Positions 26,298 to 59,593 of a stretch of DNA of 64,000 nucleotides are shown here, in pieces. The stretch is taken from NCBI GenBank assembly GCA_036704125.1, contig DATNQI010000069.1:6170-70169 (forward strand), in the 5' to 3' direction. This DNA is from Pantanalinema sp. (GTDB taxonomy: Bacteria; Cyanobacteriota; Sericytochromatia; S15B-MN24; UBA4093). Position numbers and translations under genes: made by a program. The notes below the pieces were generated by a model that had not been told where the DNA came from, did no database searches, and saw only the letters and a list, made by a program, of their open reading frames with translations. Within the stretch, counting starts at the first letter, position 1, and the number at the start of each line of letters is the position of its first letter.

Positions 26298-26306
26298 GGA
26301 GCCCCC

Positions 26307-27317
26307 ATGACCCTCTCTTCGACCCTTCCCTCCTGCCTGGCGCTCTTCACGGCGCTCATCCCCCTCTGGGCCCCGGCCGCCGAGGCCAAGCCCGAGGCCT
26401 CCGTCTCGGGGGTCGTCTTCGCCGACTACAGCGCCCCCACCTCGGGCCAGCTCGCGGGCTTCAACCTGACCCGGGCCTTCCTCACGGGCAAGGTCCGGAT
26501 CGACAACGTCTGGTCGGGCGTCATCACCCTCAACCCCTACGCCGAGCCCCTGCCTAGCGGCTCGACCGAGCCCCACGACGTCCTCCTCCAGAACGCCTAC
26601 CTCCAGGCGGACGGCCTCTATCCCGGCGGTAGCCTGCAGCTCGGGATGGTGACCCTGCCCTGGACCGAGTACGAGTATGGCTTCTGGGGCTACCGCATGC
26701 TGGGCACCGTGCCGCTCGCCGGCGGCATCGGCAAGGGCCAGACCTACGTCGGCACCTGGGACAAGGGCCTCAAGGCCCTGGGCAGCAACGGCCCGCTCGA
26801 CTACGCCCTGGCGGTCTACAACGGGGAGGGCTTCCGCTCCGGCGAGACCGACGGCTTCAAGTCCGCCCAGGGGCGCGTGAGCCTCGTCGCCCCCTTCGGC
26901 ATGGAGCTGACGGCGCTCGGCGAGCGGAGCCGGACGGCGGCCAAGTTCGTCAGCGATCGCGCCTCGGTCCTGCTGGGCTTCAGGAGCGACACCTTCCGCT
27001 GCGCCCTCCAGGGCACCCGCCTCTGGGACCAGGCCAGCGAGACAAGCCCCTTCGGAATGGGCCACGTCCTGAGCGCCTACGAAGTGGCCGCGCTGCCGAT
27101 CCCGGGCGTGCCGGGGGTCGAGTTGCTGCTGCGCGGCGACTACATCGAGCCGAGCGAGATCACCGCGGGCGACGAGCGCCTCGAGGCCATCGCGGGCCTC
27201 TCCTTCAAGCCCGCCAAGGGGGTCACCCTGGTGCTCGACAACCAGAACATCACCCGCTACGGCGCCACGACCACCAACGCCAACGTGGTCGCCCTGCACA
27301 CCAGCTTGGCGTTCTAA
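26307..27317 (+). CDS. Outer-membrane beta-barrel protein (porin-like)
   Basis: Signal peptide 'MTLSSTLPSCLALFTALIPLWAPAAEA', alternating amphipathic beta-strands, C-terminal 'ALHTSLAF' with terminal Phe. Confidence 0.6.
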   Translation: MTLSSTLPSCLALFTALIPLWAPAAEAKPEASVSGVVFADYSAPTSGQLAGFNLTRAFLTGKVRIDNVWSGVITLNPYAEPLPSGSTEPHDVLLQNAYLQADGLYPGGSLQLGMVTLPWTEYEYGFWGYRMLGTVPLAGGIGKGQTYVGTWDKGLKALGSNGPLDYALAVYNGEGFRSGETDGFKSAQGRVSLVAPFGMELTALGERSRTAAKFVSDRASVLLGFRSDTFRCALQGTRLWDQASETSPFGMGHVLSAYEVAALPIPGVPGVELLLRGDYIEPSEITAGDERLEAIAGLSFKPAKGVTLVLDNQNITRYGATTTNANVVALHTSLAF

Positions 27318-34212: not shown

Positions 34213-34217
34213 GGGGG

Positions 34218-34706
34218 CTAGACGGGCGCCTTATCCAAGGCGGCGATCTCTTCCATGCTGAGCAAGCGCTGGAGGTCGAGCAGGATGATGAGGCGATCGC
34301 CGAGCTGGCCGACGCCCTTGAAGAACGCGGCGTCGATGCCGCTCGCCACGAGCTCGGGGGTCGCCGAGACGGCCTCGGAGTCGAGGCGAAGCACCTCACG
34401 CACCGCGTCGACGATCAGGCCGACGGTCTTGCCGGCCACGTCCACGATGATGATGCGGGTCGCCTTGGTCGGCTCGGCCGAGGCCATGCCGAAGCGCCGG
34501 CGCAGGTCGATGACGGGCACGATCTTTCCGCGCAGGTTCACCACGCCCTCGACGAAGGAGGGGGCGCGGGGCACGCGGGTGATGGAGGACATGCGCACGA
34601 TCTCCTGGACCGCGGAGATGTCGACCGCGTACTCCTCCTCGGCCAGGCGGAAGCTGGCGAGCTGAAGCAAGGTCGAAGCTTGGCGCTCGATGGTGGTTTC
34701 GGACAT
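34218..34706 (-). CDS. cheW: Chemotaxis coupling protein CheW
   Basis: 162 aa, 'EEEYAVDISAVQEIVRM...VEGVVNLRGKIVPVIDLRRRFG...GLIVDAVREVLRL'. Confidence 0.95.
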   Translation of the reverse strand: MSETTIERQASTLLQLASFRLAEEEYAVDISAVQEIVRMSSITRVPRAPSFVEGVVNLRGKIVPVIDLRRRFGMASAEPTKATRIIIVDVAGKTVGLIVDAVREVLRLDSEAVSATPELVASGIDAAFFKGVGQLGDRLIILLDLQRLLSMEEIAALDKAPV

Positions 34707-34993: not shown

Positions 34994-37411
34994 CTAGCGC
35001 CGCTGCGGCAGCGCCAGCACCTTGGGCACCTGCCGCCCGCTCGCCTTCAGCGCTTCGGGGGCGACCTGGAAGAACGCCACCGCTTCCTGGAGCTGCTGGG
35101 CCTGACGGCTCAGCTCGTCCGCGGTGCGGGCCACCTGGTCCGTGGCCCCGGAGGCCTCCTGGGAGCTGCGGTTGAGGCTCTCGACCGCGATCACCACCTG
35201 ATCCGAGCCCTGGCGCTGCTCGGCGGTCGCGTAGGTCACGCTGCGCGTCAGCTCGTCCATCTCGGCCACCGCGCCGGTCACCTGGTCGTTGATGGCGGCC
35301 ATCTGCTCGGTCGCCGTCACGATCGAGGCGCTGGCTCGTGCTTGCTCGCTCGTCGCCCCGGTGACCTCGCCCAGGAGGCTGCTGACCTGGCTGGCCGCCT
35401 GCTTGATCCGGGCCAGGGCCTCGCCGGTGCGCTCGGCGAGCTCGGCGCCCTCTCGCACCTTCCCCGCGCCCTCTCGGGTCACGTGCACCGCCTGCGAGGT
35501 CTCGGCCTGGATGCCCTTGATGAGGTCCCCGATCTCCCGGGTGGCCTTGGCCGAGCGCTCGGCGAGCTTGCGCACCTCGTCGGCGACCACCGCGAAGCCG
35601 CGCCCGGCCTCGCCGGCTCGGGCGGCCTCGATGGCCGCGTTGAGGGCCAGGAGGTTGGTCTGCTCGGCGATGTCGTCGATCACCTCGATGATCGCCCCGA
35701 TCTCGCCCGAGCGCCGGTCGAGCATCTGGATGGTCTCCCGGATGCCGGCCATGGTCTCGTCGATCGCCTTCATGCCGGCGATGGTCTTGGTCACCGCCGC
35801 ATCACCCGCCTCCGCTGCGACAGAGGCCTCACCGGCCACCCGGTTGGCCCCTTCCACGTTGCCGGCCACCTGCTGGATGCTGGCGGCAAGCTCCGAGATG
35901 GAGCTGCTGGTCTGGGTGACGGCGGCGGCGAGCTCGTCCGACTGGCCCCGTACCAGGCTCACCTTGCTGCCCAGACGCTGCACGCTCGAATCCACCGACT
36001 TGAGGTTGGCCGCCATCTCCTCCATGGCCGCCGAGGTCTCTTCGGCGCTCGAGGCCTGGACCGAGGTCGTCTGGCTGAGTTCCGCGCTCGAGCTGCTGAT
36101 CTGCACGGCGCCGGCGCCCACCTCGTCGGCGGCCGATCGCACCCGGCCCACCACCTCTTGCAGCTCGGTGGACATGCGCGAGAGGGCCACCCCGAGCTGG
36201 TCGCGCTCGCTCTTGGCCTCGACCGAGCGGCTGAGGTCCCCCTGGGCGATGCGGTCCATGTGGCCGGCCACGGCCGAGAGGTAACCGATCGCCCCGCGGA
36301 AGGCCAGGGTCATGCGGGCGAACTCGTTCTGGCCCTTCACCACCTCGGTCTCGGGGACCAGGACGCGCACCTGGCCGAGATCGCCCTCGGCGATCGCCTC
36401 GCACGCCTTGGTCAGGCGCTCCATCGGCTTGACGGCCGAGCCGATCATCCAGAGCAGGAGACCGGCGACGAGAGCGACCCCGAGGGCGGCGAGCAACCCG
36501 AGCACCAGCATCATGCGGTTGACCGAGGCCAGGGCCTCGCCCTGGTCGACGTACATGGCAAGCATCCACTCGCCCTGCTCGACCGGGTGGTAGAACATCC
36601 AGCCGTCCTTGCCCGTGATGGGATCGTGCACGTCGCGCACGCCTGACTTCTTCGTGCCGACCAGGTCCTTGAAGATGGGACCGAACTTCTCGTCCTTGGT
36701 GATGTCCTTGCCGAGAAGCGCATCGACGGGTGCCGCGACGACCCCGCCCCGGGGGCTCAGCAGCAGGAACATGGCGGACTGGTAAGGCTTGAGCTCCTTG
36801 AGCTTCCTCTGGATGTCCCCGAGGCCGCGGTCGACGCCGGCGATGCCGGCAAAGCGCCCATCCTTGCGCAGGGGGGTGACGAAGGAGGTCATCATGACCC
36901 CATCGTAGAGGTAGGGATCGACCACCACCGGGCGACCCAGCTTCTTGGGGAGCTGGTAGTAGGCGTCGGTCTCCATGCCCACCAGCAGATCGAGGTTCAT
37001 CCCGCCCTTGAGGCGGTTGTAATAGGGAATGAAGCGCCCGCTCTTATCGGCTCCGCGCGCGCCGCCCCACGCCTGGTCGTTGCCATCGGCGTTGGGCTCG
37101 TAGCCCACGTAGGCGCCGAGCACGTCGGGGTTGCCCTCGGCGATTCTGCGCAGGTAATCGGCAGTCATCGCCCGCCTTCCGAAGGCCCCGGTGAGCTGGT
37201 GATCCGCCATCAGGTCGACCATCTTGAGCATGCGGGCATTGTCGGCGCTCATGCGATCGGCGATGTCGGTGGTGATGGCCTTGCCGTACTTCTCGCTGGC
37301 TACGATCTGGTCTTGGCGCACCGAGACGGCGACGAAGGCGAAGAGGGCGACGAAGAGCAGGGCGATGCCCGCTCCAAGCCGGAGGGTGATCTCGTGCTTG
37401 ATGCTGCGCAT
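34994..37411 (-). CDS. Methyl-accepting chemotaxis protein with periplasmic double-Cache-like sensor domain
   Basis: Start set at internal M ([10 protein letters not shown]), not the track start 37546 which overlaps flhB. N-TM, ~300-aa periplasmic domain, TM, HAMP, MA domain '[44 protein letters not shown]'. Confidence 0.9.
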
Positions 37412-37526
37412 GGGGCCTCCTGGAGGGGGGACGATGGGGCACACCTTTAGTAATAACGAATCAGCCGCAAGCAGGGGAGGGACTTTGGTCCCGACCTTGC
37501 CGCAAAACGTGATCTGCCGCTCGCGC

Positions 37527-38594
37527 TCAGATGCGCGCCTTGGCATCCGCCCGGGTCACGGCCACCAGGATCTCGGCCACCACCGCGTACATGTCGGGGG
37601 GGATCTCGTCGCCGACCTCGACCTGGCGGTAGAGGGCCTGGGCCACCGGCTTGTTCTCGACCAGAGGCACCATCGCCTCGCGCGCCACGTCGCGAATTCG
37701 CTTGGCCACCAGGTCCGTCCCCTTGGCGACCACCACCGGCACCTCCATCGCGTCCCGGTCGTACCTGAGGGCGACGGCGAAGTGGGTGGGGTTGGTGATG
37801 ACGACCGTCGCCGTGGGGACCTCCTGCATCATGCGGCGGCGCGCGGCCTGGCGCTGGCGCTTGCGGATCTCGCCCTTTACCTCGGGCGAGCCCTCTTGCT
37901 GCTTGGCCTCGTCCTTGACCTCCTGCTTGGTCATCTTGAGGTTGCGCCACCACTCCCAGCGCTGGTAGGCGTAGTCCAGCAGGCCCAGGACGAAGAGCGC
38001 CAGGGCCGAGCGCCATGCGATGGTCCAGGCGGTATCGGCCAATAGCGCCCCGAGCTGCGCCCTGCCCGCCTGGACCGCCGTCACGATCGGCACGTAGCGC
38101 TCCTGGATGACCGCGTAGCTCAGTGAGCCCACCACCGCGATCTTGAGCAGGCCCTTGAGGGTCTCGACCACCCCGCGCAGCGAGACGATGCGCTTCATGC
38201 CCTGGATCGGGTTGAGCTTGGCGAACGACGGCTTGAGGGGCTCGAGGGTGTAGAGAAGGCCCACCTGGGCGTAGCTCGCCAGGAGGCCGACCAGGAGGAT
38301 CCCCGCCAGGAAAGGGGCGATCGCAAGCAGGGTCTCGCGGGTCAGGGTCAGGGCCATCACCTGCAGGGCCGGGATCGTCAGGTCCCCCTGCGGGAAAGCG
38401 CTCAGGTTCTCGACCATGCGGTTGCGGGTGAGCTCGACGATGTTGCGCCACTGCCAGTAAAGCAGGATCGCCGCCACCATGAGCCCCACGGCCGCGTTGA
38501 CGTCCATGCTGCGCGGGATGTTGCCCTTCTTGCGGGCATCGCCCAGGCGTTTGCCTGAAGGGTCCTCGGTCTTCTGATCCTTGTCCGCGCTCAC
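37527..38594 (-). CDS. flhB: Flagellar export apparatus protein FlhB
   Basis: '[18 protein letters not shown]' N-terminus, 4 TM helices, autocleavage site 'NPTHFAVAL' (NPTH), C-terminal domain. Confidence 0.95.
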
Positions 38595-43119: not shown

Positions 43120-43704
43120 TTACTGGATCACGAAATCCGTGAAGTAGACGCCCATGACCTTCTTGTCGGGCGCGATGCGGTTGAGGGTCACCTTGAGCTC
43201 GTCCTTGATCAGGTCCCGGCCGCCGGGCGCCTTGAGGCGCGCGATCGACTGGCGCGACAGGGTGGCGATGATCGCGTCCTTGTACAGGGGCTCGTAGGTC
43301 GCCATGGCCGCCTTGATCGCAGCCGAGGGGTCCTCCTCGGCGCCGCCGCCGTGGCCGCCGCCGCCCTTCTTCTCGCCATCGGCGTGGGCCTCGCCGGCCA
43401 TGGCGAGCGCCACGGTGGTCTTGAGGTAGTGGCGGCCCGGGTCCGAGAGGTTGACGATGAACTCGCCGACCGGGTAGATCTCGGTGACGGGCGCGGGCGC
43501 CTCCTCGTGCTGCTTGTCCTCGACGACCTTGCCCTTCTCGGTGATCACGTGCTTCTCGATGATCACCTGCTTGGGCATGGCGAAGCGGATCGCGACGAAC
43601 GAGCTGAGGCTCGAGATCAGGGCGATGCCGACCGCCGCCATGATCACCTTGCCGTTCATCGGTCCGTCCGACGGCGGTTTCTTCGCAGCAGCTTGCTTGG
43701 CCAT
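43120..43704 (-). CDS. fliL: Flagellar basal-body-associated protein FliL
   Basis: N-terminal TM 'KVIMAAVGIALISSLSSFVAI', 'YPVGEFIVNLSDPGRHYLKTTVAL'. Confidence 0.85.
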   Translation of the reverse strand: MAKQAAAKKPPSDGPMNGKVIMAAVGIALISSLSSFVAIRFAMPKQVIIEKHVITEKGKVVEDKQHEEAPAPVTEIYPVGEFIVNLSDPGRHYLKTTVALAMAGEAHADGEKKGGGGHGGGAEEDPSAAIKAAMATYEPLYKDAIIATLSRQSIARLKAPGGRDLIKDELKVTLNRIAPDKKVMGVYFTDFVIQ

Positions 43705-43721
43705 GGTTCGGGTGGTGCCTC

Positions 43722-44516
43722 CTAGTAGCGAGTCGTGTCAGGGGAGGGCGGAACAGGGGGCTGCGCGGCGCGCAGGACCACGATGTCGACGCGCCGGTTC
43801 TGGGCACGGTGGGCTTCGGTGTCGTTGGGAACCTTGGGGTAGTATTCCCCGTACCCCGCCGCTGATAACCGGCGCGGCTCGTAGGAATGGCGCTCTATCA
43901 GGAACCGCACCAGGTTGGTCGCGCGGGACGCCGACAGCTCCCAGTTCGAGGGGTAGCGCGCCGTCGAGATGGGGGTGTTGTCGGTGTGACCCTCGATCCG
44001 CATGGTGTGGTCGAAGGTCCTGAGCATGCGCGCGATCCGGTCCAGGGTCGGCACCGCCTTGGGGCGCAGGCCCGCGTCGCCGGGCATGAAGAAGCCGGCG
44101 TTCGAGATCGAGACCACCAGGCCCTCGCTCGTGACGGTCGCCTCCAGCTCGTCGGCGAGGCCCGCCTCCTCGGCCATCTGCTCCACCTCGGTCGAGAGGC
44201 GCTCGAGCTCCAGCTGCTCGGGCGGCACGATGAGCTGCTCGTGGGGCAGCACGCCCTTTCCGCCGTCCAGGAGGGTGTTCTCGCGGTGACCCGCACCCTT
44301 CAGATCGATCACGGTGCTGTTCGCGCCCATGGACTTGTTGAGCGACTCCTTGAGCTTCTCGTACTTGGCCACGTCGACCTGGGAGAGGGCGTACAGCACG
44401 ACGAAGAAGACCAGCAGCAGCGTGATCAGGTCGGCGTAGGTCAACAGCCAGCGCTCGGAAGAGCCGCCGCCGTGGCCGCCCCCGCCGTGTGCCCGGCGCG
44501 CGCGCCGACCGCTCAA
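43722..44516 (-). CDS. motB: Flagellar stator protein MotB (OmpA-like peptidoglycan-binding domain)
   Basis: 'WLLTYADLITLLLVFFVVLY' TM with plug/Asp, C-terminal OmpA-like 'IEGHTDNTPISTARYPSNWELSASRA...NRRVDIVVL'. Confidence 0.9.
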   Translation of the reverse strand: MSGRRARRAHGGGGHGGGSSERWLLTYADLITLLLVFFVVLYALSQVDVAKYEKLKESLNKSMGANSTVIDLKGAGHRENTLLDGGKGVLPHEQLIVPPEQLELERLSTEVEQMAEEAGLADELEATVTSEGLVVSISNAGFFMPGDAGLRPKAVPTLDRIARMLRTFDHTMRIEGHTDNTPISTARYPSNWELSASRATNLVRFLIERHSYEPRRLSAAGYGEYYPKVPNDTEAHRAQNRRVDIVVLRAAQPPVPPSPDTTRY

Positions 44517-44517
44517 G

Positions 44518-45306
44518 CTAGACCTCCTCGGCGGGCTTGAGGGCGCGCCGCATCTCGGGCGAGAGGAAGCTCTTGAGCTTCTCCTCGACGATCTGGGGGT
44601 TGTCGCCCGCCTGGATGGCGAGGATCCCCGCGAGCATCATCTCGCGGACCAGGACCTCCTGCTCGCTGCGACGCTTGAGCTTGGTGGCCAGCGGCAGCCA
44701 GAGGAGGTTGGCGGTCCAGACGCCGTAGAGGGTCGCCACGAAGGCCACCGCGATCGCCCCGCCCAGACCCGAGGGGTTGCTGAGATTCCCCAGCACGTGG
44801 ATCAGGCCCATGACCGTTCCGATGATGCCCATGGTGGGCGCGAAGCCGCCCATGGCCTCGAGGATGCCGAAGGAGGCCGCGTGGCGGCTGGCGATGAAGC
44901 TCAGCTCGGTCTCGAGCATGTCGCGGACGGTGTGCTGGTCGATGCCGTCGGCCACCATCTGCATCCCCTTCTGGAGGTAGTCGTCGCCCGCCTCGGCCAC
45001 GTCGGCCTCGAGGGCGAGCAGCCCCTCGCGGCGGGCCTTCTCGGCGTAGCCGACCAGCTGCGGGATCAAGGAGACCGGGTCGTAGGGGTTGGCCGTGAAG
45101 GTCAACGACAGCATCCGGGGCAGGTTGAGGACGTCCTTCAGGGGGAAGGCGATCAGGGCCGCGCCGAAGGTGCCTCCGAACACGATGATGAAGGCCGTCA
45201 GCTGCCAGAGGGCGGTGAGGCCGTGGATGCCGCCCGACTCCATCGCGCTGGCGACGAGCATGGCCCCCCACCCGAGGAGCAGTCCGAGAATGGTTGCGAT
45301 TTCCAC
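44518..45306 (-). CDS. motA: Flagellar stator protein MotA
   Basis: 4-TM MotA/TolQ/ExbB architecture, 'GGFAPTMGIIGTVMGLIHVLGNLSNPSGLGGAIAVAFVATLYG'. Confidence 0.9.
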   Translation of the reverse strand: MEIATILGLLLGWGAMLVASAMESGGIHGLTALWQLTAFIIVFGGTFGAALIAFPLKDVLNLPRMLSLTFTANPYDPVSLIPQLVGYAEKARREGLLALEADVAEAGDDYLQKGMQMVADGIDQHTVRDMLETELSFIASRHAASFGILEAMGGFAPTMGIIGTVMGLIHVLGNLSNPSGLGGAIAVAFVATLYGVWTANLLWLPLATKLKRRSEQEVLVREMMLAGILAIQAGDNPQIVEEKLKSFLSPEMRRALKPAEEV

Positions 45307-45542
45307 TAGGCCTCCGCTACGACGGCCGCGCCGGGCGCGGCCCCAAGAATCAAGCGAACATCGGGGTGGCAGCGGCGCTTGAAGGCGGCCACCCGCTCGA
45401 TCACCTCGTCGACGGACTCCTGCACCACGTAGCGCTGGTTGGAGGTCAGCGCCACGATGGTGTCGGGCGTCGCCTCGACCGACTCGATCAGGTCGCAGTT
45501 GATCACGAACGCGATCCCGTTAAGGCGGGTGAGCTTGATCAC
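45306..45542 (-). CDS. flbD: Flagellar protein FlbD
   Basis: 'MIKLTRLNGIAFVINCDLIESVEATPDTIVALTSNQRYVVQESVDEVIERV' closely matches FlbD of Firmicutes/spirochaetes. Confidence 0.85.
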   Translation of the reverse strand: MIKLTRLNGIAFVINCDLIESVEATPDTIVALTSNQRYVVQESVDEVIERVAAFKRRCHPDVRLILGAAPGAAVVAEA

Positions 45543-45826
45543 TGCCTTGCCTCTCCCTTCTCGCGGTTCATCCGCTGCACGAACACCAGGACCTCCGCCA
45601 CCACCGGATAAAGCTCGGCGGGGATCGCCTCGCCCAGCTCCAGGACCGAGAGGCTCTCGACCAGAAGCGGGTCGTGGTGGACCGCGACCCCGTGCTCGGC
45701 GGCGAGCGCCAGGATCTTCTCGGCCGTGAGCCCGCGGCCGCTCGCGACCACCGTCGGGGCCTCGTCGTGCTCGGTCTCGTAGCGCAGCGCCACGGCGCGC
45801 TTTTCGGCGTCCTCACCGGTGGTCAT
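45539..45826 (-). CDS. FlhB C-terminal-domain paralog (EscU/YscU/FlhB-CTD family, YlqH-like), 95 aa
   Basis: 'AVALRYETEHDEAPTVVASGRGLTAEKILALAAEHGVAVHHDPLLVESL...LYPVVAEVLVFV' matches the FlhB cytoplasmic domain after the NPTH site. Confidence 0.75.
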   Translation of the reverse strand: MTTGEDAEKRAVALRYETEHDEAPTVVASGRGLTAEKILALAAEHGVAVHHDPLLVESLSVLELGEAIPAELYPVVAEVLVFVQRMNREKGEARQ

Positions 45827-45834
45827 GACGGCTC

Positions 45835-47493
45835 CTAGCCATAGAAGTCCACGCCCGAGGCACCCGCGACACCCGAGGCGGGGGCCGTCCCTGGCGCCTT
45901 GCGGCGCTGGGCCTCCTTGCGCAGGCCCATGGTCCCGACCCGGACCCCGACCCCCTCGATTGCGTCTCGCAACTCCGGGAGGCGTGCTTCCAGGAAGGCC
46001 GCCGCGGCCGGATCCTGGAGGGAGACTTGGCAGTTTACCTGGCGCTGATTCAAAAGTAAATCGATCCGGATGCCGTGCAAGTGAGGCGTATCGAGGGCGA
46101 TGACCACGCGCGTGGCCCCGGAGGGGCCGCTGGCCGTGGAATCGCCCTCCCCCTGGCGCTCATGTACCCGGATCTCGCCGCTTCCCCTACTCCACCATAA
46201 AGGAATCGTGAAGGCAAGCCCTTCGTCGCCCGCCGCGCGCAGCTGGCCGAAGCGGATCTCGTCGCGCAGGGCCCGGGCATCGGCGTCCACCGGGTGACGA
46301 TCCACCACCCGTTCCAGGACCTCGGCCAGGCGCTCGCGCGGCACGGCCGCCTCTTTAGAGGCCTCTTCGGGGGCTTGCTCGGCCATGCGGGCCAGGTCCG
46401 CCTCGGGCGGCACCAGGGCGGCCACCAGGCGACGAAGGGCCGCTTCGACCTCGGTGCGTCCCCCCTCGGGCAGCGCCAGGCCCTGCAGCCTCGCGAGGGC
46501 CTCGGCCTTCGGGGCGAGCGGCGCCGGGGCGGGGGGCTCGTCGTGGCGGACCTCGATCGGAGCGCCGGCTTCGGCCAGGAAGTCCGACAAGAGGGCATCG
46601 AGCGCGGCCTCGAAGGCGGGTTGCCTGGCGGCAGGCAAGGCGCGATAAGCCCGGACGATCGCCTCGTGGAGCGACGGCTGGGCGCCGTCAGCCTCGATCG
46701 TCCCCGGGTGGGGCGCCGGGGAGAGGGACGCCGGGGGCTGGGCCGAGGGCCGGGCCGGGGACAGGGACGCCGGGGCCGAGGGCTGGGCCGGGGCGCTCGG
46801 GATCGAGACGCTCGGAGCCTTGGCGCTCGGATCGTGAGCCTCCCCTTCTGGCGCCTCGTCGGCCGGGCTCGCGAAGGCGGCGAGCAGGCGTGTCACCGCC
46901 TCCGCGAGGGCCTCTCGGCGCTCGGGCGCGATGGTGGCGAAGAGGCGCTCCAGGCCCTCGGCGAGATGGGGCACGCGCGAGGTCTGCGCCTCGCGCGAGG
47001 GCAGCCGCGACTCGTCCTCGGGTCCCCACTGGAGCGAGACCTGCTCGACCATGAGCTTGAGGCGCTCCCCCGAGGTCTGGGGGGCGTCGTGGCGACCGAG
47101 GACCATCAGCGCCGTCTCGGGGGTCACCGGCAAGCGCCTCACCACCAGAAAGGCGATCGCCGCCGCGTCGCGAGGCTCGGGCCGCTCGAGGCGCGAGAGA
47201 CCTCGCTCGACCTCCTTGAGCAGCATGGGGTCCAGGCGCCCCTGCTCGGCCACCAGGGCACGGGCGGCCAGTAGGCGGGTGGGCTCGGGCGGGAGGCCGA
47301 GCTTCTCGACCTCCTGGGCCAGATGACCGTCGCTGAGAACGTCCGCGATGAGGTCGATCGCCATTCCCTTGAGGGCCTCGATGCGCGACCGGACGTGCTC
47401 GCCCACAAGCGAAGCGCCCGGCTCCGGGGAAATCCCCCCCGAAGCCGGGAAAACTCCGCCCGGGACCACCGGGCCGACGCCATGCACCTCCAA
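45835..47493 (-). CDS. FliK-like protein (second copy, YlqG-like): Ala/Pro-rich with C-terminal Flg_hook-like domain
   Basis: C-terminus 'RVVIALDTPHLHGIRIDLLLNQRQVNCQVSLQDPAAAAFLEARLPELRDAIEGVGVRVGTMGL' parallels the FliK C-domain of the canonical copy. Paired with the FlhB-CTD paralog, as YlqG-YlqH are in Firmicutes. Confidence 0.55.
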   Translation of the reverse strand: MEVHGVGPVVPGGVFPASGGISPEPGASLVGEHVRSRIEALKGMAIDLIADVLSDGHLAQEVEKLGLPPEPTRLLAARALVAEQGRLDPMLLKEVERGLSRLERPEPRDAAAIAFLVVRRLPVTPETALMVLGRHDAPQTSGERLKLMVEQVSLQWGPEDESRLPSREAQTSRVPHLAEGLERLFATIAPERREALAEAVTRLLAAFASPADEAPEGEAHDPSAKAPSVSIPSAPAQPSAPASLSPARPSAQPPASLSPAPHPGTIEADGAQPSLHEAIVRAYRALPAARQPAFEAALDALLSDFLAEAGAPIEVRHDEPPAPAPLAPKAEALARLQGLALPEGGRTEVEAALRRLVAALVPPEADLARMAEQAPEEASKEAAVPRERLAEVLERVVDRHPVDADARALRDEIRFGQLRAAGDEGLAFTIPLWWSRGSGEIRVHERQGEGDSTASGPSGATRVVIALDTPHLHGIRIDLLLNQRQVNCQVSLQDPAAAAFLEARLPELRDAIEGVGVRVGTMGLRKEAQRRKAPGTAPASGVAGASGVDFYG

Positions 47494-47525
47494 GGGTCAG
47501 GTCCTGCGAAGCCGAGTCGCGAGCG

Positions 47526-48842
47526 CTAGCGCTTGAGCGACATCAGCTCCTGGAGCACCTCGTCCGAGGTGGTGATGATCTTGGAGTTGGACTGCAGGCC
47601 GCGCTGCGCCACGATCATGTCGGCGAACGACGAGGCCAGGTCCACGTTCGAGTTCTCGAGCGAGCCGGGGGCGATGAGCCCGCGCGAGCCCGCGCCCGCG
47701 ACGCCCACCTGGGGCTCGCCCGAGTTGGGCGTCGCCGAGAAGAGGTTGTCGCCGTTGACCAGAAGACCGACGGGGTTGGTGAAGGTCGCGACCGACACCT
47801 GACCGAGGACGCGGGTGCGGCCGTTCGAGAAGACGCCCTGGATGGAGCCCGCGGCGTCCACCGCCACGCCCGTCAGCGAACCCGACGAGTAGCCGTCCTG
47901 GTCGGTCATGACCGCGGTGCTGTTGTAGAAGCTCTTCGACTCGTCGGTCCTGGGGTCGTTGTACTGGGTCATGGAGCTGGTGTCGCCGGGCTTGCCCAGG
48001 TTCAGCTTGATGTTGAGCTGGTCGAAGTCGCCGGCGTTGGCGGGGTCCAGGGTAAGGGTCGGCTGGTCGTAGCTCGCGAAGACGCCCTTGTTGTCGAAGG
48101 TCAGGGTGCCCAGGTCGTAGGAGGTGGCGCCCCCCTGGAAGGAGTCGGCCTTGTCCGGCACGAAGGCCACCGTCCAGGTGTTGGTCGCGGTCTTGGTGAA
48201 CTCCACGTTGCCCTTGTGGACGTTGCCCTTGGAGTCGAAGATCGTCACCGAGCTCTTGGCCTTGCTGTTGGGATCGGGATCGATCGGGGTCAGGGCCTCG
48301 AGGTTGGCGCCGATGCGGATGTTCTGGGTGGCCTGGGGGGTCAGGGTGACGCCGGCGGGCACCCTGAGGGTCTCGGGGGGGCGGGCGGTCTCGACCTTGT
48401 AGGTGCCATCCGGCTGCGAGGTGGCGTTCCAGCCCATGACCTTGAAGCCGTTCGAGATCTTGACCAGGTTGCCCTCGCGGTCGAAGTCGAAGGAGCCGTC
48501 GCGGGTGAAGACCTGCTGCTTGCCGTCGCTGACGACGAAGAAACCCTCGCCGCTGATGGCCATGTCGGTGCTCTTGCCGGTCGGATTGAGCGAGCCCTGG
48601 CCCATGAGGAGGTCGATGGAGCCCACCGTGACGCCGAGGCCCAGCTGGCTGGGGTTGGTTCCGCCCAAAGCGCCGCTGGGAGCCGAGCCGCCGCGCAGGG
48701 TCTGCAGGAACTGCTCCTGGAAGTTCACCCGCTGCGCCTTGTAGCCGATGGTGTTCACGTTGGCGATGTTGTTGCCGATGACATCCAAGCGGATCTGCTG
48801 GTTGCGCAGACCGGACACGCCGGAGTTGAGTGAACGAAGCAT
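47526..48842 (-). CDS. flgE: Flagellar hook protein FlgE
   Basis: N-terminus 'MLRSLNSGVSGLRNQQIRLDVIGNNIANVNTIGYK', C-terminus 'ENSNVDLASSFADMIVAQRGLQSNSKIITTSDEVLQELMSLKR'. Confidence 0.95.
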   Translation of the reverse strand: MLRSLNSGVSGLRNQQIRLDVIGNNIANVNTIGYKAQRVNFQEQFLQTLRGGSAPSGALGGTNPSQLGLGVTVGSIDLLMGQGSLNPTGKSTDMAISGEGFFVVSDGKQQVFTRDGSFDFDREGNLVKISNGFKVMGWNATSQPDGTYKVETARPPETLRVPAGVTLTPQATQNIRIGANLEALTPIDPDPNSKAKSSVTIFDSKGNVHKGNVEFTKTATNTWTVAFVPDKADSFQGGATSYDLGTLTFDNKGVFASYDQPTLTLDPANAGDFDQLNIKLNLGKPGDTSSMTQYNDPRTDESKSFYNSTAVMTDQDGYSSGSLTGVAVDAAGSIQGVFSNGRTRVLGQVSVATFTNPVGLLVNGDNLFSATPNSGEPQVGVAGAGSRGLIAPGSLENSNVDLASSFADMIVAQRGLQSNSKIITTSDEVLQELMSLKR

Positions 48843-48970
48843 CTGGACTCCTCCTTATGGGGTCACCGCGAGGCAATCGGGGAAAATTTCGGCCGCCAGG
48901 AAGGCGAAACCTTCCGACTAGTATTGGTATCGGCCACGCAAGCGAGACCTTTAGGGGCGGCTGTGGCCGC

Positions 48971-49399
48971 TTAGGCGATCTGCTCGATGTGCTGGATCTC
49001 GACCGGCACCAGGGCGCCGTCGGCCTCCCCGTCGGGCTTGACCATGAGCTTGATCGCGCCGTCCACGCGACGCGCCTCGACGACCTGGCCGGCGAAGTGG
49101 GCGTCGTCGGTGCGCACGGCCACCTTCTTGCCGATCAGGCCGGAGGCCTGGCTCAGCTGACCGAGCTCGGCCTGCTGGGAAAGGGTCTTGCTCAGGTTCT
49201 GCATCTCCTCGAGCGAGCTGAACTGCGCCATCTGGGCGATGAACTCCTTGTCCTCCATGGGGTTCATGGGGTCCTGGAAGCGCAGCTGGGTGACCAGCAG
49301 CTTGAGGAAGTCGTTCTTGCCGAGATCCGAGTTCTTCTTGGTGGTCGTCTGGACGGGGTTGTTGTTGCTGCTGCCCGAAACGGCTCCGGTCTCTGCCAT
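48971..49399 (-). CDS. flgD: Flagellar hook capping/assembly protein FlgD
   Basis: 'LGKNDFLKLLVTQLRFQDPMNPMEDKEFIAQMAQFSSLEEMQN' is the FlgD N-domain. Confidence 0.9.
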   Translation of the reverse strand: MAETGAVSGSSNNNPVQTTTKKNSDLGKNDFLKLLVTQLRFQDPMNPMEDKEFIAQMAQFSSLEEMQNLSKTLSQQAELGQLSQASGLIGKKVAVRTDDAHFAGQVVEARRVDGAIKLMVKPDGEADGALVPVEIQHIEQIA

Positions 49400-49427
49400 G
49401 GGGATTCGCCTCCTGAACTAAGGGCGT

Positions 49428-50906
49428 CTAAGCCTGGTAATCGATGCGCTCGGCGACGGCGGACGCTTCGCCCGCCGCCTCCTCCGGGGTCATTTCCGCG
49501 ACGGGCTCGCCCGCGTCGTCGAAGCCGAGGGAACGAGGGCGGCCGGACGCCTGCGCGTCCTGCTGCGACTGCTGCTGGGACTGCTGCTGGTAACCGCCCG
49601 AGAGATCGAAGCCCTGCTCGGGGCGACGCTGATCCTGCCCCACGCTGACCTCGAGGCGGTCGATCTTGATGCCCTGATCGGCGAGCGTCTGGCGCAGCTC
49701 GGCCATCTGGACCTGCATCATGTCGCGCGTCGCGCTCTGCTCGACCCGGATCGAGGCGCTGAGCGTGCCCTGGTGGGAGACGACGCGGATCTGCATCCGG
49801 CCGAGATGCTCGGGGCTGAGCTGCAGGCGCAGCTCGGTCGGCTTGCCGGGCTCGCGGGCCGCCTGCTCGAAGGAGGTCTTGAGGGCCTCGCGCATGGGCA
49901 TGGCCTCCGCGCGAGGGGCATCGCCATCGAGAACCCGCGCCTGGGGCACGGCGACCTCCGCCGCCTGAACGGGGTGGTGCAGCTCCCACGGCTGGACCGC
50001 AGCCTCCGGCGCGGGGCTCGCCTGAGCGCTCGCTGCGGGGCCGGCGGGGACGTTCTGCGTCTCGAGCGCCTTGGTCAAGGCCTCGGCCGCGACCGGCTTC
50101 GACTCGGTGGGGATCGGCGCCTGCGCCGTGGCGCGCGCCGCGGCCTCCTGGTGCTTGCGGTTCAGGGGGGCGTCGTGGGCCGTCAGGCTCATGGTCGCCT
50201 TGACGGTCTCGAGGGATTCGGGCACGTGCTGGCGCGCCACCGGGCTCACGGGAACCCTGGGCATCTGATCGCCGGCCGCCGGCTCCTCGCCCTCGGAGGC
50301 CTCCTCGGGCAACGCCTCGGCAGTAGGGGCATCGACGGCCTCCGAGACGGCCTGCGCGACAACGGTCGCCGCCGCGAGTGGGTTCAGGGCGGCCTCGGCG
50401 ACCTGGGGCTGGGCAGGCGTCACGGGAGCCGTCACGGGAGCCGTCACCGGAGCCGTCACGGGGGCCGTCACGGGAGCCGCCACGGGAGGCGCCGCGCCGA
50501 CGACGGCCGGGGCCTGGGCGAGCTGGACGGGAGGCACCGGCACCGCAGAGGTGACCTGCACCAAGCCCGGCAGCATGACCTGGGGGTCGTGCAGCGAGGG
50601 CTGGGCGGGGATGGTGGCCTCGACGCCGGGCTGAGCTGCCTGGTCGGCAGCGGGCGGCTGCGCGACGGTCTCGTCGGGCTTCGCCGCATCGCGGCTCGAA
50701 CCCTCGCTCGAGGGCTCCGCCTCGGCGCGCTCGGGCCTGCGCTCTGCGCGCTCGGGCCTGCGCTCGGCGCTCCGGGCCGGCTCCTGCCGGCGGGCGCTGC
50801 GGTCCATGGCATTGGCGAAGCCGTCGCGGGGCGAGGCGGAAGCCCCGGCCTTGGTGCGGACGGGAGCCGTCTCGGCGCCCGGGAAGATCTGGATGGGTTG
50901 AGTCAA
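49428..50906 (-). CDS. fliK: Flagellar hook-length control protein FliK (canonical position between fliJ and flgD)
   Basis: C-terminal Flg_hook domain 'PTELRLQLSPEHLGRMQIRVVSHQGTLSASIRVEQSATRDMMQVQMAELRQTLADQGIKIDRLEVSVG', Ala/Pro/Gln-rich ruler region with (APVT)n. Confidence 0.8.
   Translation of the reverse strand: MTQPIQIFPGAETAPVRTKAGASASPRDGFANAMDRSARRQEPARSAERRPERAERRPERAEAEPSSEGSSRDAAKPDETVAQPPAADQAAQPGVEATIPAQPSLHDPQVMLPGLVQVTSAVPVPPVQLAQAPAVVGAAPPVAAPVTAPVTAPVTAPVTAPVTPAQPQVAEAALNPLAAATVVAQAVSEAVDAPTAEALPEEASEGEEPAAGDQMPRVPVSPVARQHVPESLETVKATMSLTAHDAPLNRKHQEAAARATAQAPIPTESKPVAAEALTKALETQNVPAGPAASAQASPAPEAAVQPWELHHPVQAAEVAVPQARVLDGDAPRAEAMPMREALKTSFEQAAREPGKPTELRLQLSPEHLGRMQIRVVSHQGTLSASIRVEQSATRDMMQVQMAELRQTLADQGIKIDRLEVSVGQDQRRPEQGFDLSGGYQQQSQQQSQQDAQASGRPRSLGFDDAGEPVAEMTPEEAAGEASAVAERIDYQA
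50417..50488 (-). repeat. In-frame 12-bp tandem repeat (gtcacgggagcc, x5-6) encoding (APVT)n in the FliK ruler
   Basis: Directly visible tandem copies gtcacgggagccgtcacgggagccgtcaccggagccgtcacgggggccgtcacgggagcc. Confidence 0.8.
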
Positions 50907-50933
50907 GGGGGAATCCTCCTCGTCGCAGGGGCC

Positions 50934-51431
50934 CTACTTCTCCCCTTCTTCCATCATCGGCGGCGGTGAAGGAAAGTTGAGGGCATTCGTCCGCGCGAAT
51001 CGGATCGTCGCGAGCTCGTCGATGAAGCGGGCCTCGGCCCGGTCGAGCCCGCGCTGGTGCTCGGCCTTGGCGCTCGCCTTGAGCTTCTCGAGCACCTGGA
51101 CCTTCTGGGCGGCCTCCATCAGCTCGGCGCGCGCCGCCTCGGCCTCGCGCTCGGCCTGGGCGATCGCCCCGAGCTGCCGATGCGCCTGGTCGATCAGGTG
51201 GCCCAGGTGGTCGTGGCCGAACTGCATGGCCTGGAGGTCGAGGCGGCCCGAGGCCTGCATGGCGAGGATCTCCTGGCGCGCGCGGCCCTGCGCCTCGACG
51301 AGCCCGGCGTGGCGATCGCGCTCGGCGACGACCTTGGCCTGCGCCTCGCCCAAAAGCTGCGCCCTCTGGTCCTGCACCCGCACCGCTAGATCCAGCACGG
51401 TCTGGAGGCGGAACTTGAACCCGCTCGCCAT
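50934..51431 (-). CDS. fliJ: Flagellar export chaperone/stalk protein FliJ
   Basis: 'FKFRLQTVLDL...' coiled-coil ~150-aa protein directly after fliI. Confidence 0.8.
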   Translation of the reverse strand: MASGFKFRLQTVLDLAVRVQDQRAQLLGEAQAKVVAERDRHAGLVEAQGRARQEILAMQASGRLDLQAMQFGHDHLGHLIDQAHRQLGAIAQAEREAEAARAELMEAAQKVQVLEKLKASAKAEHQRGLDRAEARFIDELATIRFARTNALNFPSPPPMMEEGEK

Positions 51432-51440
51432 GGACCGGGC

Positions 51441-52754
51441 CTATTCCCCGAACAGGCCCTGGAGGGCCGCGACCGTCTCGTCCATGACCATGGGCTCGTT
51501 CACCCCCTGCCTCAGGAAGAAGTTGACCGCCTCGATCCGGGCGATCGCCCGGTCGATGGAGGGGTTGGATCCCGCGGCGTAGGCCCCGATGTTGATCAGG
51601 TCCCGCGCCTCTCGGTAGGTCGCGAGCGTCTCGCGCAGGGCCCCTGCGGCCCGCACGTGCTCTAGCGGGACGATCTCGGTCATGACGCGCGAGACCGACG
51701 ACAGCACGTCGATGGCCGGGTAGTGGTTCTGCGCGGCGAGATCGCGCGAGAGCACCACGTGCCCGTCCAGGATGCCTCGCACCGTGTCGGCGATGGGCTC
51801 GTTGGTGTCGTCGCCCTCGACCAGCACGGTGTAGAGGGCGGTGATGGCCCCCACCTCGGAGGTACCCGAGCGCTCCAGGAGGCGCGGCAACAGGGCGAAG
51901 ACCGAGGGGGTGTAGCCCTTGGTCGCGGGCGGCTCGCCGACGGCGAGGCCCACCTCGCGCTGGGCCATGGCGAAGCGCGTCACCGAGTCCATCATCATGA
52001 TCACGTTGGCGCCCTGGTCGCGGAAGTACTCGGCGATCGCGGTCGCGACGAACGCCCCCTTGAGGCGCTGCAGAGCGGGCTGGTCCGAGGTCGCGACCAC
52101 CACCACCGAGCGCGCGAGGCCCTCCGGCCCCAGGTCGCGCTCCAGGAACTCCCGCACCTCGCGACCTCGCTCGCCGATCAAGGCGATCACGTTGAGGTCC
52201 GCATGGGCTGAGCGCGCGATCATGCCGAGCAGGGTCGACTTGCCGACCCCCGAGCCCGCAAAGATGCCGATGCGCTGCCCCTCGCCGCAGGTGAGCAGGC
52301 CGTCCATGGCGCGCACGCCCAAGGGCAGCGGCTTGTGGATTCGCTGGCGGGTCAGGGGGTTGGGGGGCGGGGCCTCGAGCGGGGCGCGGTGGGTGGCCAG
52401 GAGGGGGCCCTTGCGGTCGATGGGGTTGCCGAGGCCGTCGAGGACCCGCCCCAGGAGGTGGGGCCCGACCCGGACCCCCAGCGTCTGGCCGGTGGCGGCC
52501 ACCGGGCTGCCCGGCTTGACCCCCTCCATGAGGCCGAGCGGCATCAGGAGGACCCGGTCGTCCCTGAAACCGACCACCTCGGCCATCAGGGGGGGGCGGT
52601 TCGAACCGAGGGAGATGCGGCACAGCTCGCCGAGGCTCGCCCGGGGCCCGAAGCTCTCGATCACCAGGCCGATCACCTGGGCGACCTTGCCCTCGACCCG
52701 GATGGGGTCGGCACCTTCCACGCGCGAGAGGGCCGCCGCCAAGAGGTCGCCCAT
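51441..52754 (-). CDS. fliI: Flagellum-specific ATP synthase FliI
   Basis: Start at ATG ([14 protein letters not shown]) overlapping the fliH stop (TGATG). Walker A '[11 protein letters not shown]', Walker B '[12 protein letters not shown]'. The 698-aa track ORF is an artefactual 5' extension. Confidence 0.95.
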
Positions 52755-57814: not shown

Positions 57815-58489
57815 CTATCGTCCGACCCCTGTGCCCGCGCGTGCCACGATGGCCGCGACCACCTCGTCGGCGCTCAGGCCGTCGCTGTCGAGCAGGATGG
57901 CGTCCTCGGCGGGCTTGAGCGGGGAGTGCTCGCGCGTCGAGTCGAGGGAGTCGCGGCGCGAAATCTCGAGCTCGAGCGCCGTGACGTCCACCACGTGCCC
58001 GGCGCGCTCCAGGTCCCTGGCCCGGCGGCGCGCCCGCTCGGCAGGGCTTGCGACCAGGAAGATCTTGAGGTCAGCCCAGGGAAAGACCACCGTCCCGATG
58101 TCGCGCCCCTCGGCGACGACCCCGCCGGCACGGCCGATGGCCTGCTGCAGGGCGACCAGCTCCCTGCGCACGCCCGCCACCTTGGCCACCTCCGAGACGC
58201 GCCGGGTGACCTCGGGGGTGCGGATCGCCTCGGTCACGTCCTCGTCGTCGATGGCGACCCGATCGCCCTCGGCCCCCGGCGTGAAGGCGATCGCGCACCG
58301 CTTGGCCAGCTCGGTGAGGGCGGCCTCGTCGCCGAGGTCCAGGCCCGTGGCCAAGGCCTTCCAGGTGAGTGCCCGGTACATGGCACCGGTGTCCAGGAAG
58401 ACCAGGCCGAGCTGCTGGGCCACGCGGCGCGCGACCGTGCTCTTGCCGGCACCCGCGGGGCCGTCGATGGCGATTACCAGGCGGTTCAT
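57815..58489 (-). CDS. cmk: Cytidylate kinase
   Basis: 'IAIDGPAGAGKSTVARRVAQQLGLVFLDTGAMYRALT'. Confidence 0.9.
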   Translation of the reverse strand: MNRLVIAIDGPAGAGKSTVARRVAQQLGLVFLDTGAMYRALTWKALATGLDLGDEAALTELAKRCAIAFTPGAEGDRVAIDDEDVTEAIRTPEVTRRVSEVAKVAGVRRELVALQQAIGRAGGVVAEGRDIGTVVFPWADLKIFLVASPAERARRRARDLERAGHVVDVTALELEISRRDSLDSTREHSPLKPAEDAILLDSDGLSADEVVAAIVARAGTGVGR

Positions 58490-58502
58490 CTAGAGACTCT
58501 CC

Positions 58503-59372
58503 TTAAAGGGGAAGGGCGCAGAGGGCGGCGTCGGGGCCGTGGGGATCCAGGATGACGTTGTCGATCAGGCGCGTGCTCCCCAGCTGGGCTGCCACCAGGG
58601 CCACCGTGCCGGGCCCCGCGGCGGTCGCGGGCCCGAGGTGCTCGGCGTCCACCGCCGAAAGGTACTGGAGCGAAAGGCGTGGCTCGGCCTCGAGGTAGGC
58701 GCGCGCCTGAGCGAGGGCCTCGGCGAGCGGGTGATCCGCAACGCGGCGCAAGAGAAGGCCGAGCGAGCGCGAGAGGCGAAGGGCCGCCACCCGGTCCTCG
58801 GCGCTCAGGTAGGTGTTGCGGCTGCTCATGGCCAGCCCGTCGGCTTCTCGCACGATCGCACCGCGCACGATCTCGGTGGGGAAGGCCAGATCCCGGGCCA
58901 TCCGGCTGAGGACGCGCCACTGCTGGAAGTCCTTCTGGCCGAAGTAGGCCCGCTCGGGATTTACCAGATTCAGCAGCTTGGCCACGACCGTGGCGACGCC
59001 CGCGAAGTGGCCCGGACGCAAGGCCCCGCAGAGCACCCCGGTCAGCTCGGGCGCAACCGAGACCTCGGTGGCGAAGCCCGGCGGGTACATCTCCGCGACC
59101 GAGGGCGCGAAGAGCACGTCCACCCCGACCGCCTCGCACATGGCGCGATCCCGCGCGAAATCGCGCGGGTAGCGCGCGAGGTCCTCCCGGGGACCGAACT
59201 GCTTGGGGTTGACGAAGATCGAGGCGACCACGACCCCGCACTCGCGCCGGGCCTGGCGCATGAGGCTCATGTGGCCCTCGTGGAGAAAGCCCATGGTGGG
59301 AACGAAGCCGATGCCTCCTGCCGGGGCGCGAAGCGCCGCGCGCAACGCCGCGCCGGTTTCGACGATAAGCAA
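58503..59372 (-). CDS. panC: Pantoate--beta-alanine ligase
   Basis: 'GFVPTMGFLHEGHMSLMRQAR', 'FVNPKQF', 'FGQKDFQQ', 'LAMSSRNTYL'. Confidence 0.9.
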   Translation of the reverse strand: MLIVETGAALRAALRAPAGGIGFVPTMGFLHEGHMSLMRQARRECGVVVASIFVNPKQFGPREDLARYPRDFARDRAMCEAVGVDVLFAPSVAEMYPPGFATEVSVAPELTGVLCGALRPGHFAGVATVVAKLLNLVNPERAYFGQKDFQQWRVLSRMARDLAFPTEIVRGAIVREADGLAMSSRNTYLSAEDRVAALRLSRSLGLLLRRVADHPLAEALAQARAYLEAEPRLSLQYLSAVDAEHLGPATAAGPGTVALVAAQLGSTRLIDNVILDPHGPDAALCALPL

Positions 59373-59593
59373 GCCGCAAGTCCTTTCAGTCAGAGCAAAG
59401 CCGCGTCAATTCTATCACCCCCGCCGCCAGGCGACCATAAGAGCCGGCTGGCGGGGGTGATGCCACCGCCAAACCCTTTCGCCGCCCCGGCCATTCGCGG
59501 CAGCGATCGCCCCTCGTAGGATCGGCCCTGTGCGAGGGGTCGGTGGTGCGTGGTAAGCCGGCCAAGCAAAGCATCTGAGGAGCGACGCGTGCG

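Follow-up and report, generated by a model that had tools for sequence, protein, structure and literature searches.

A fliK2-flhX gene pair lies between flgE and flbD in the hook-motor operon of a Sericytochromatia-like genome

We analyzed a 64,000-nucleotide (nt) stretch of DNA (here called the window; ~69% G+C) assigned to Pantanalinema sp. (GenBank assembly GCA_036704125.1, contig DATNQI010000069.1, positions 6,170 to 70,169 of the forward strand). A Pfam scan revealed a long flagellar/chemotaxis cluster on its minus strand, and within this cluster, between the hook gene flgE and flbD, lie two further genes: fliK2, a 552-amino-acid (aa) open reading frame (ORF) with a FliK-type T3S4 domain near its end, and flhX, which encodes a 95-aa free-standing FlhB_CC protein. 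These genes are very probably the local orthologue of a widespread two-gene module, fliK2-flhX (ylqG-ylqH). The pair is already known, though poorly understood, inside or beside the flagellar clusters of other phyla; only its location within the hook operon is unusual, and the window contributes a lineage and an operon position that are new. A sequence-only reading had proposed an extra FliK-like gene and an FlhB C-terminal paralog at this site, next to a canonical fliK and a full-length flhB. Both ORFs were found where it had placed them, with profile matches above the Pfam cutoffs and well past anything due to chance, and both canonical genes are present as well (Table 1).

The flhX product matched the Pfam profile Bac_export_2 (E value of 5e-18; 65.8 bits against a cutoff of 24.4), with the match restricted to profile positions 262 to 335 of 335 and none at positions 1 to 261. 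The best NCBIfam model was TIGR00789 (flhB_rel, "FlhB-like"; 93.4 bits), ahead of the flhB model (72.5 bits). FlhX residues 11 to 87 align by BLAST to residues 273 to 350 of the window FlhB, with 42% identity over 78 aa, and since this alignment begins past the NPTH motif, FlhX starts just after the position of the self-cleavage site. Its N terminus reads MTTGEDAEKRAVALRYE (MTTGEDAEKR-AVALRY). The protein has no NPTH motif, no FlhB_CN strand, and no transmembrane part; the conserved core of FlhB_CC is retained in it, AVALRY strand included.

Structural comparisons gave the same picture. The best Protein Data Bank sequence matches of FlhX were the post-cleavage chain B of 3B1S and of 3B0Z (Aquifex and Salmonella FlhB_C), which align from their residue 5. 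An AlphaFold2 model built from a 42-sequence alignment had a predicted local distance difference test (pLDDT) score of 86.1, and the top Foldseek matches of this model were again 3b1s_B and 3b0z_B (template modeling [TM] scores of 0.77 to 0.90; root mean square deviation [rmsd] of 1.1 to 1.7 Å), with TM scores of 0.81/0.90 and an rmsd of 1.1 Å on 3b1s_B. There is good support for regarding FlhX as a soluble and ready-made copy of the FlhB_CC fragment, which full-length FlhB releases when it self-cleaves at NPTH. The earlier description of the small protein as an FlhB cytoplasmic-domain homologue was therefore right about the FlhB C terminus and too broad in its extent, as only the post-NPTH fragment is present and not the whole domain. 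FlhX-type proteins of Latescibacterota, Herbinix, Nitrospirota, Chloroflexota, and others are 55 to 62% identical to FlhX. Because FlhX is closer to these proteins of other phyla than to the FlhB of its own genome (42%), it is very probably an orthologue within an old family.

The fliK2 ORF product matched the Pfam profile Flg_hook over residues 458 to 526 (E value of 3.5e-08; 33.6 bits against a cutoff of 29.8). Its T3S4 domain is 19% identical to residues 353 to 415 of the window FliK over 63 residues, and this region is the sole detectable similarity between the two proteins. We took as canonical the FliK that occupies the fliJ-fliK-flgD slot and has the strongest Flg_hook match; fliK2 lies after flgE and scored 33.6 versus 71.5 bits. 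A word-indexed protein search returned four FliK2 relatives (70 to 100% identity), and a five-sequence FliK2 alignment used as the query in such a search returned the same four proteins and nothing further; low-complexity words probably filled the candidate list of that search. When 1.84 billion cluster representatives were searched exhaustively with HMMER, 38 relatives were found at an E value of ≤1e-3 and 7 at ≤1e-30, most of the 38 matching the C-terminal third only. With so few full-length relatives, no deep alignment was possible. By these comparisons, FliK2 evolves fast.

Two short motifs, defined by criteria that were derived in this analysis and are not curated, mark the FliK2-like proteins. 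The first lies just upstream of the Pfam domain and is common to FliK2-like proteins of other phyla (consensus F-x-Q-L-N...Y-x-Q-L-P-L). A hidden Markov model (HMM) made from 59 FliK2 C termini aligned the window FliK2 from position 19 and three canonical FliK proteins only from positions 46 to 48, although its scores for the window FliK2 (46.9 bits) and the window FliK (42.4 bits) differed little. The second motif is the extreme C terminus. In the tails of 63 FliK2-like proteins, position -5 is hydrophobic in 61, position -4 is Asp in 48, position -3 is hydrophobic, position -2 is Arg or Lys in 51, and position -1 is Ala in 37, so that a typical protein ends in SFDVRA. Canonical FliK proteins end in IDYQA in the window, VDYQA and FDAQA in two of its relatives (L002 and L004), and VDIFA in E. 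coli K-12. The window FliK2 ends in VDFYG, as do those of its close relatives, and the FliK2 of L004 ends in VDVWL. By sequence, VDFYG appears to be a diverged form of the hydrophobic-Asp-hydrophobic-x-Ala end that is common to FliK2-like proteins and to the FliK of the window and of E. coli.

The remainder of FliK2 was modeled with low confidence, too poorly for a fold search. In this model, helical segments at residues 33 to 206 and 275 to 424 precede a mixed alpha/beta domain at residues 427 to 526, and the Pro/Ala-rich linkers, a short tail, and the first ~30 residues are predicted to be disordered. According to alignment gaps, the linker at residues ~210 to 271 exceeds that of the two closest homologues by ~25 to 30 residues; it includes a degenerate 12-nt repeat (positions 46730 to 46794).

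The start codon of fliK2 is uncertain. The NCBI call gives a 523-aa protein from a GTG at 47406, while the ORF from the TTG at 47493 encodes 552 aa. An AGGA stands 8 nt before the TTG, and the 29 additional residues can be aligned with those of two 70%-identical homologues, which differ by whole-codon insertions and deletions. These two features favor the start at 47493. The first 29 codons show unusually low synonymous divergence (0.08 to 0.17), which would also fit a conserved untranslated leader. The FliK2 proteins of L004 (6397 to 7983) and of a Methylomirabilota metagenome-assembled genome (MAG) (L017; 2705 to 4306) have an extra N-terminal segment of ~75 residues carrying GKVEARVLQV...LRAGDVFTA; in the window (47400 to 47493) and its closest relatives, this segment measures ~30 residues.

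We compared the window genes with two 70%-identical orthologues by the ratio of nonsynonymous to synonymous divergence (dN/dS). The fliK2 values were 0.31 to 0.33 overall and 0.20 to 0.35 in the T3S4 domain, and those of flhX were 0.17 to 0.23. These values lie within the range given by flgE (0.39 to 0.44), motA (0.15 to 0.18), and fliK (0.46). Both fliK2 and flhX are under purifying selection (dN/dS of ~0.2 to 0.3) and are maintained by it.

The two genes also travel together across phyla. With the alignment of 42 FlhX proteins as the query, we surveyed 80 loci on one-genome-per-species contigs, the best scoring of at least 556 matches. They come from Lachnospiraceae and other Bacillota, Nitrospirota, Desulfobacterota, Hydrogenedentota, Chloroflexota, Planctomycetota, Methylomirabilota, Aquificota, Acidimicrobiia, and one Sericytochromatia MAG. 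A same-strand ORF ends near the flhX start in 77 of the 80 loci, mostly with a gap of -19 to +50 nt. Since phmmer, queried with the window FliK2, recovered a FliK2-like gene from no more than three of the 80 loci, Pfam scans of the upstream ORFs were used instead. Flg_hook was found in 64 of the 77 genes just upstream of flhX, and six of these genes also matched HpaP, another T3S4 family. The FliK2-like proteins of at least 300 aa range from 333 to 733 aa (median, ~557). A T3S4 gene thus precedes flhX often enough to mark the two as a conserved pair. One surveyed flhX, that of Neomoorella stamsii DSM 26217 (L064; ~8000 to 8255), has an in-frame stop (...REILA-stop-RYNSEQDKAPRVVASG...) which falls on the conserved Leu of AVALRY; pseudogenization, a sequencing error, and recoding are candidate explanations.

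The surroundings of the pair differ from one lineage to another. The gene 3′ of flhX encodes YraN/UPF0102 in 38 of 65 loci and a rod protein of the flgF/flgG type in 5, and RNase HII lies upstream of the pair in 4 of the surveyed loci. No flagellar genes were detected within 8 kb of the Firmicute pair in the surveyed loci. The sequence-only reading had named YlqG-YlqH as the Firmicute counterpart, unlinked there to flagellar genes, and this nonflagellar context agrees with it. FlbD followed flhX in none of the other 64 loci scanned, a count that leaves out the syntenic L001, L002, and L004. Separately, in seven loci from Desulfobacterota, Syntrophales, and Planctomycetota MAGs (L015, L023, L031, L044, L051, L055, and L063), flhX is followed, directly or one ORF later, by two rod genes of ~240 to 260 aa (flgF/flgG type). 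This is a flagellar linkage of flhX other than that in the window.

We then examined gene order by phmmer with 18 flagellar proteins of the window against the 80 surveyed loci. Full synteny was found in one genome, Candidatus Sericytochromatia MAG L004, which shares with the window the order fliJ-fliK-flgD-flgE-fliK2-flhX-flbD-motA-motB-fliL-fliM-fliN. The shorter order flgE-fliK2-flhX-flbD-motAB recurs in the closest FlhX/FliK2 relatives, namely, L001, L002, L084/L085, L087 (labeled "Cyanobacteria bacterium RYN_339"), and L088 (a compost MAG), so that the position is indeed conserved in related genomes. On a short contig, L083 has fliK2-flhX-flbD with an unannotated gene upstream, and in a variant, L086, an unannotated 460-aa gene and flhX open an flbD-motAB-fliLMN operon. 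Within this clade of syntenic relatives, FliK2 measures 394 to 552 aa. Among the best 80 of at least 556 matches plus the closest relatives, the flgE-fliK2-flhX-flbD-motAB position is seen only in genomes labeled Sericytochromatia or Cyanobacteria, and the placement of the pair between flgE and flbD appears to be characteristic of this nonphotosynthetic cyanobacterial lineage. Elsewhere in these operons, L084 (2970 to 3353) and L088 (1319 to 1702) carry a 127-aa "Flagellar_put" gene (PF12611) between flgD and flgE; the window has just a 128-nt gap between these genes.

Other features bear on the identity of the source genome. The window has panC (pantoate ligase) next to cmk (cytidylate kinase), and it carries a DUF3326 gene (57815 to 59405 and 18684 to 20120, minus strand), features that we take to be typical of the cyanobacterial lineage. 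The database protein that is 100% identical to FliK2 is labeled "Pantanalinema sp.," and the syntenic relatives are labeled Sericytochromatia or "Cyanobacteria bacterium." The genus assigned to the source MAG is therefore probably wrong or narrower than warranted.

The features of the locus are listed in Table 1. The gap between fliK2 and flhX is 8 nt, with AGGAG located 5 nt before the flhX ATG, and the flgE stop and the fliK2 TTG are 32 nt apart. At the other end, flhX and flbD share a GTGA; start/stop overlaps of this kind are a layout typical of translational coupling. From this layout, fliK2 and flhX are probably cotranscribed with flgE, flbD, and motAB, and translation of flhX may be coupled to that of its neighbors. 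A consensus scan of positions 43500 to 51500 found no promoter-like sites, and terminator-like sites in the same interval were at chance level, with none convincing around fliK2-flhX; a scan at chance level is evidence neither for nor against an internal transcription unit.

Table 1. Flagellar genes and sequence features of the window around fliK2 and flhX
Feature	Positions	Strand	Basis
fliK2-like gene (ylqG type), 552-aa ORF	45835-47493	-	Pfam Flg_hook, 33.6 bits
T3S4/Flg_hook domain of FliK2, residues 458-526	45916-46122	-	PF02120 profile positions 10-78 of 85
Motif IRFGQLRAAG...FTIPLWW, FliK2 residues 413-434	46192-46257	-	Just upstream of Pfam domain
Pro/Ala/Ser-rich low-complexity linker of FliK2, residues ~210-271	46681-46866	-	Translation; pLDDT ~30
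Terminal pentapeptide VDFYG of FliK2	45838-45852	-	Tail tabulation
flhX (ylqH type), 95 aa, free-standing FlhB_CC	45539-45826	-	Pfam, NCBIfam
fliK2-flhX junction, fliK2 TAG stop inside AGGAG ribosome binding site	45827-45840	-	Read from sequence
GTGA overlap, flbD start GTG with flhX stop TGA	45539-45542	-	Read from sequence
flgB, flgC, fliE, fliF, fliG, fliH, fliI	57598 down to 51441	-	
fliJ	50934-51431	-	
fliK, canonical, in fliJ-fliK-flgD slot; protein end IDYQA	49428-50906	-	Pfam Flg_hook, 71.5 bits
Tandem repeats of canonical fliK	50418-50488 and 50705-50778		
flgD	48971-49399	-	
flgE (hook protein), directly upstream of fliK2	47526-48842	-	Pfam Flg_bb_rod, LlgE_F_G_D1, FlgE_D2, Flg_bbr_C
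flbD (swrD type), directly downstream of flhX	45306-45542	-	Pfam FlbD, 96.9 bits
motA	44518-45306	-	Pfam MotA_ExbB
motB	43722-44516	-	Pfam MotB_plug/OmpA
After motB: fliL, fliM, fliY-type fliN, fliO/P/Q/R, flhB, methyl-accepting chemotaxis protein (MCP) gene, che genes		-	
flhB, full length	37527-38594	-	Pfam Bac_export_2, 407.5 bits, profile positions 2-335 of 335
NPTH self-cleavage site of FlhB, residues 268-271, then FAVALRY	37782-37793	-	Translation

Farther along the cluster, the downstream neighbor of flhB is an MCP gene (34994 to 37555, minus strand; 853 aa, with MCPsignal, HAMP, and dCache domains) and not flhA, which lies ~13 kb past it (21958 to 24060, minus strand; FHIPEP, 908 bits). 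The genes cheW, cheX, cheY, cheA, cheR, and cheB lie between the two, and flhA is followed by a PilZ-domain gene (21232 to 21957) and then by a gene for a FliA-like sigma factor (19966 to 20769). A 616-aa ORF with coding-like codon bias between cheW and cheX (32380 to 34230, minus strand) had no Pfam match even at an E value of 0.1, and the ORFs at 26298 to 27317 (plus strand) and 20903 to 21328 (minus strand) were likewise without a Pfam match. The canonical fliK contains two clean, in-frame tandem repeats, one of 12 nt in 5.9 copies (PVTA) and one of 21 nt in 3.5 copies (RRPERAE-like), which are candidates for ruler length variation.

Several described systems resemble the window pair. In Pseudomonas putida, the pair was named fliK2-flhX (PP_4328/PP_4329) and forms a FliA-dependent operon in which fliK2 is uncharacterized (bioRxiv 10.1101/2021.08.29.457346); the same source credits the name FlhX to Pallen 2005. 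As in the window, a Flg_hook gene precedes a small FlhB C-terminal homologue in one operon of a flagellar cluster that has a canonical fliK and flhB too. The P. putida pair, however, has its own late operon, whereas the window pair is embedded between flgE and flbD-motAB. The similarity of the two FliK2 proteins is probably confined to the C-terminal part. An "flhX-fliK" pair is also mentioned in Nitratiruptor (PMC9321776), and FlhX was scored as a flagellar component in early-branching Actinobacteria (PMC10746217).

The Firmicute YlqG-YlqH pair of the surveyed Lachnospiraceae and other Bacillota has the same architecture, a Flg_hook protein of 500 to 700 aa followed by an FlhX of ~95 aa. (For Bacillus subtilis, we take the gene names ylqG and ylqH and their location to be as commonly given.) The Firmicute pair lies in a housekeeping context, with YraN/UPF0102 and RNase HII nearby, in contrast to the hook operon of the window, and many Firmicute FliK2 proteins have an extra N-terminal region that is missing from the window FliK2. 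FlhX of Helicobacter pylori (HP1575) is, by its description, likewise a free-standing FlhB_CC homologue beside a full-length FlhB, and to our knowledge no other member of the family has functional data. The notion that the pair is functionally uncharacterized holds in part only: in bioRxiv 10.1101/2021.08.29.457346, H. pylori FlhX is cited as partly replacing FlhB function (Wand 2006, Smith 2009). The H. pylori protein is also reported to occupy the FlhB_CN site when FlhB_CC is deleted.

The closest mechanistic parallel is the FliK-FlhB_CC switch of Salmonella and E. coli. In the Salmonella model, cleaved FlhB_CCD and Fluke keep the export gate in the early mode, and FliK is proposed to use its folded T3S4 region and last five residues to engage and eject FlhB_CCD (PMC13344023, which does not mention FlhX). 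The window pair has the same domain types, with a T3S4 domain, a terminus apparently related to hydrophobic-Asp-hydrophobic-x-Ala, and an FlhB_CC fold. Unlike the FlhB_CC of the switch, FlhX has no membrane-gate tether and no NPTH site, and unlike canonical FliK, FliK2 lies outside the fliJ-fliK-flgD slot and has an extra conserved motif before its T3S4 domain.

We propose that fliK2-flhX encodes a soluble, cognate copy of the FliK-FlhB_CC interface that tunes the export switch, a reading whose chances we consider evenly balanced. We infer the binding, docking, and effect from the conserved pairing, the shared terminal motif, the FlhB_CC fold, and the Salmonella and H. pylori data. By analogy with canonical FliK and FlhB_CC, FliK2 would bind FlhX through its T3S4 domain and tail, and FlhX could take the FlhB_CN docking site on the export gate, as is reported for the H. 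pylori protein when FlhB_CC is deleted. If FlhB_CC locks the rod/hook (early) mode until FliK ejects it, as in the Salmonella model, FlhX would supply or replace this lock, which FliK2 would withhold or take away. The early-to-late switch would thereby be tuned, backed up, or reset, and cotranscription with flgE, flbD, and motAB would put the action of the pair at the hook stage. A more specific version, which we regard as rather improbable, is that in Sericytochromatia-like bacteria FlhX reloads the FlhB_CN emptied by FliK, relocking the gate or delaying its switch, and that FliK2 removes or withholds FlhX by means of the terminal motif that FliK also uses, the pair forming a second, soluble layer of the export switch.

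Several observations weigh against the soluble-interface proposal. FlhX scored below the curated TIGR00789 cutoff (93.4 against 117.35 bits). The VDFYG end of the window FliK2 keeps the hydrophobic-Asp-hydrophobic core, with its last two positions off the consensus. The AlphaFold2 model of FliK2, built from four sequences, had a pLDDT score of 48.8 and was unusable. The surveyed loci, as the best scoring of at least 556 matches, are mostly from Lachnospiraceae. Finally, the P. putida pair is expressed late, under FliA, and fits a hook-stage role poorly; set against the hook-operon place of the window pair, this suggests that timing differs between lineages.

FlhX might instead act away from the gate, as a cytoplasmic decoy or buffer that soaks up the FliK C-terminal domain and so guards against a premature switch, with FliK2 setting the amount of free FlhX and no docking involved. 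FlhX has the FlhB_CC fold that FliK targets, FliK2 has a FliK-type end, and the close spacing of the genes suggests that their translation is coupled and their dosage matched. The H. pylori data, as cited in the preprint, point to FlhX working at the gate, and we think this alternative unlikely, although the present results do not separate it from the soluble-interface proposal.

FliK2 could also be a second ruler that is secreted through the flagellar export apparatus and measures the length of the rod, or of the hook under other conditions, with FlhX as a receptor of its own. FliK2-like proteins have the great and variable length expected of rulers; their Pro/Ala-rich linkers vary in length even among close relatives; the first ~30 residues of FliK2 are predicted to be disordered; and a distal-rod gene comes next after flhX in five loci of the Desulfobacterota/Planctomycetota type. 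Yet the N-terminal and middle regions of FliK2 are predicted, at low confidence, to be mostly helical segments and not one extended tape, FliK2 length is not conserved within the clade (394 to 552 aa), and it is hard to explain how a ruler in transit would meet a soluble FlhX outside the gate. A second ruler, with its putative secretion of FliK2, seems to us a doubtful explanation.

It is similarly improbable that FlhX is only a spare part, a redundant backup for FlhB_CC, with a FliK2 that is functionally unrelated or dispensable. Such a role would suit the retained FlhB_CC core with its AVALRY strand and the partial replacement of FlhB function by H. pylori FlhX, as cited in bioRxiv 10.1101/2021.08.29.457346, but it does not explain why a T3S4 gene sits next to flhX in 64 of 77 genomes of various phyla, why both genes are under purifying selection, or why a FliK-type terminal motif is conserved in FliK2. 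As for the origin of the pair, both domain families occur twice in one operon, as they would after the recent local duplication of fliK and the flhB 3′ end suggested by the talk of a duplicated module in the sequence-only reading, or in decaying remnants; this origin is excluded for practical purposes by the low identity to the local FliK (19% over 63 aa) and FlhB (42% over 78 aa), the intact ORFs, the dN/dS of 0.2 to 0.3, the presence of the pair in many phyla, and the higher identity that FlhX shows with its counterparts in other phyla. The two genes come from old families that evolve separately.

What FlhX and its FliK-like partner do is a minor question of flagellar assembly, which has gained weight since the 2026 Salmonella model made the cleaved FlhB C-terminal fragment a lock that FliK ejects. 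Should reloading of FlhB_CN by FlhX prove true, the "irreversible" early-to-late switch would be adjustable or resettable in nonphotosynthetic Cyanobacteriota. The pairing of T3S4 genes with flhX (64 of 77), the terminal motif similar to that of E. coli FliK, and the hook-motor placement lead to the hypothesis that FliK2 may be to FlhX what FliK is to FlhB_CC. The main value of the finding is the comparative support that it gives to this testable FliK2-FlhX hypothesis.

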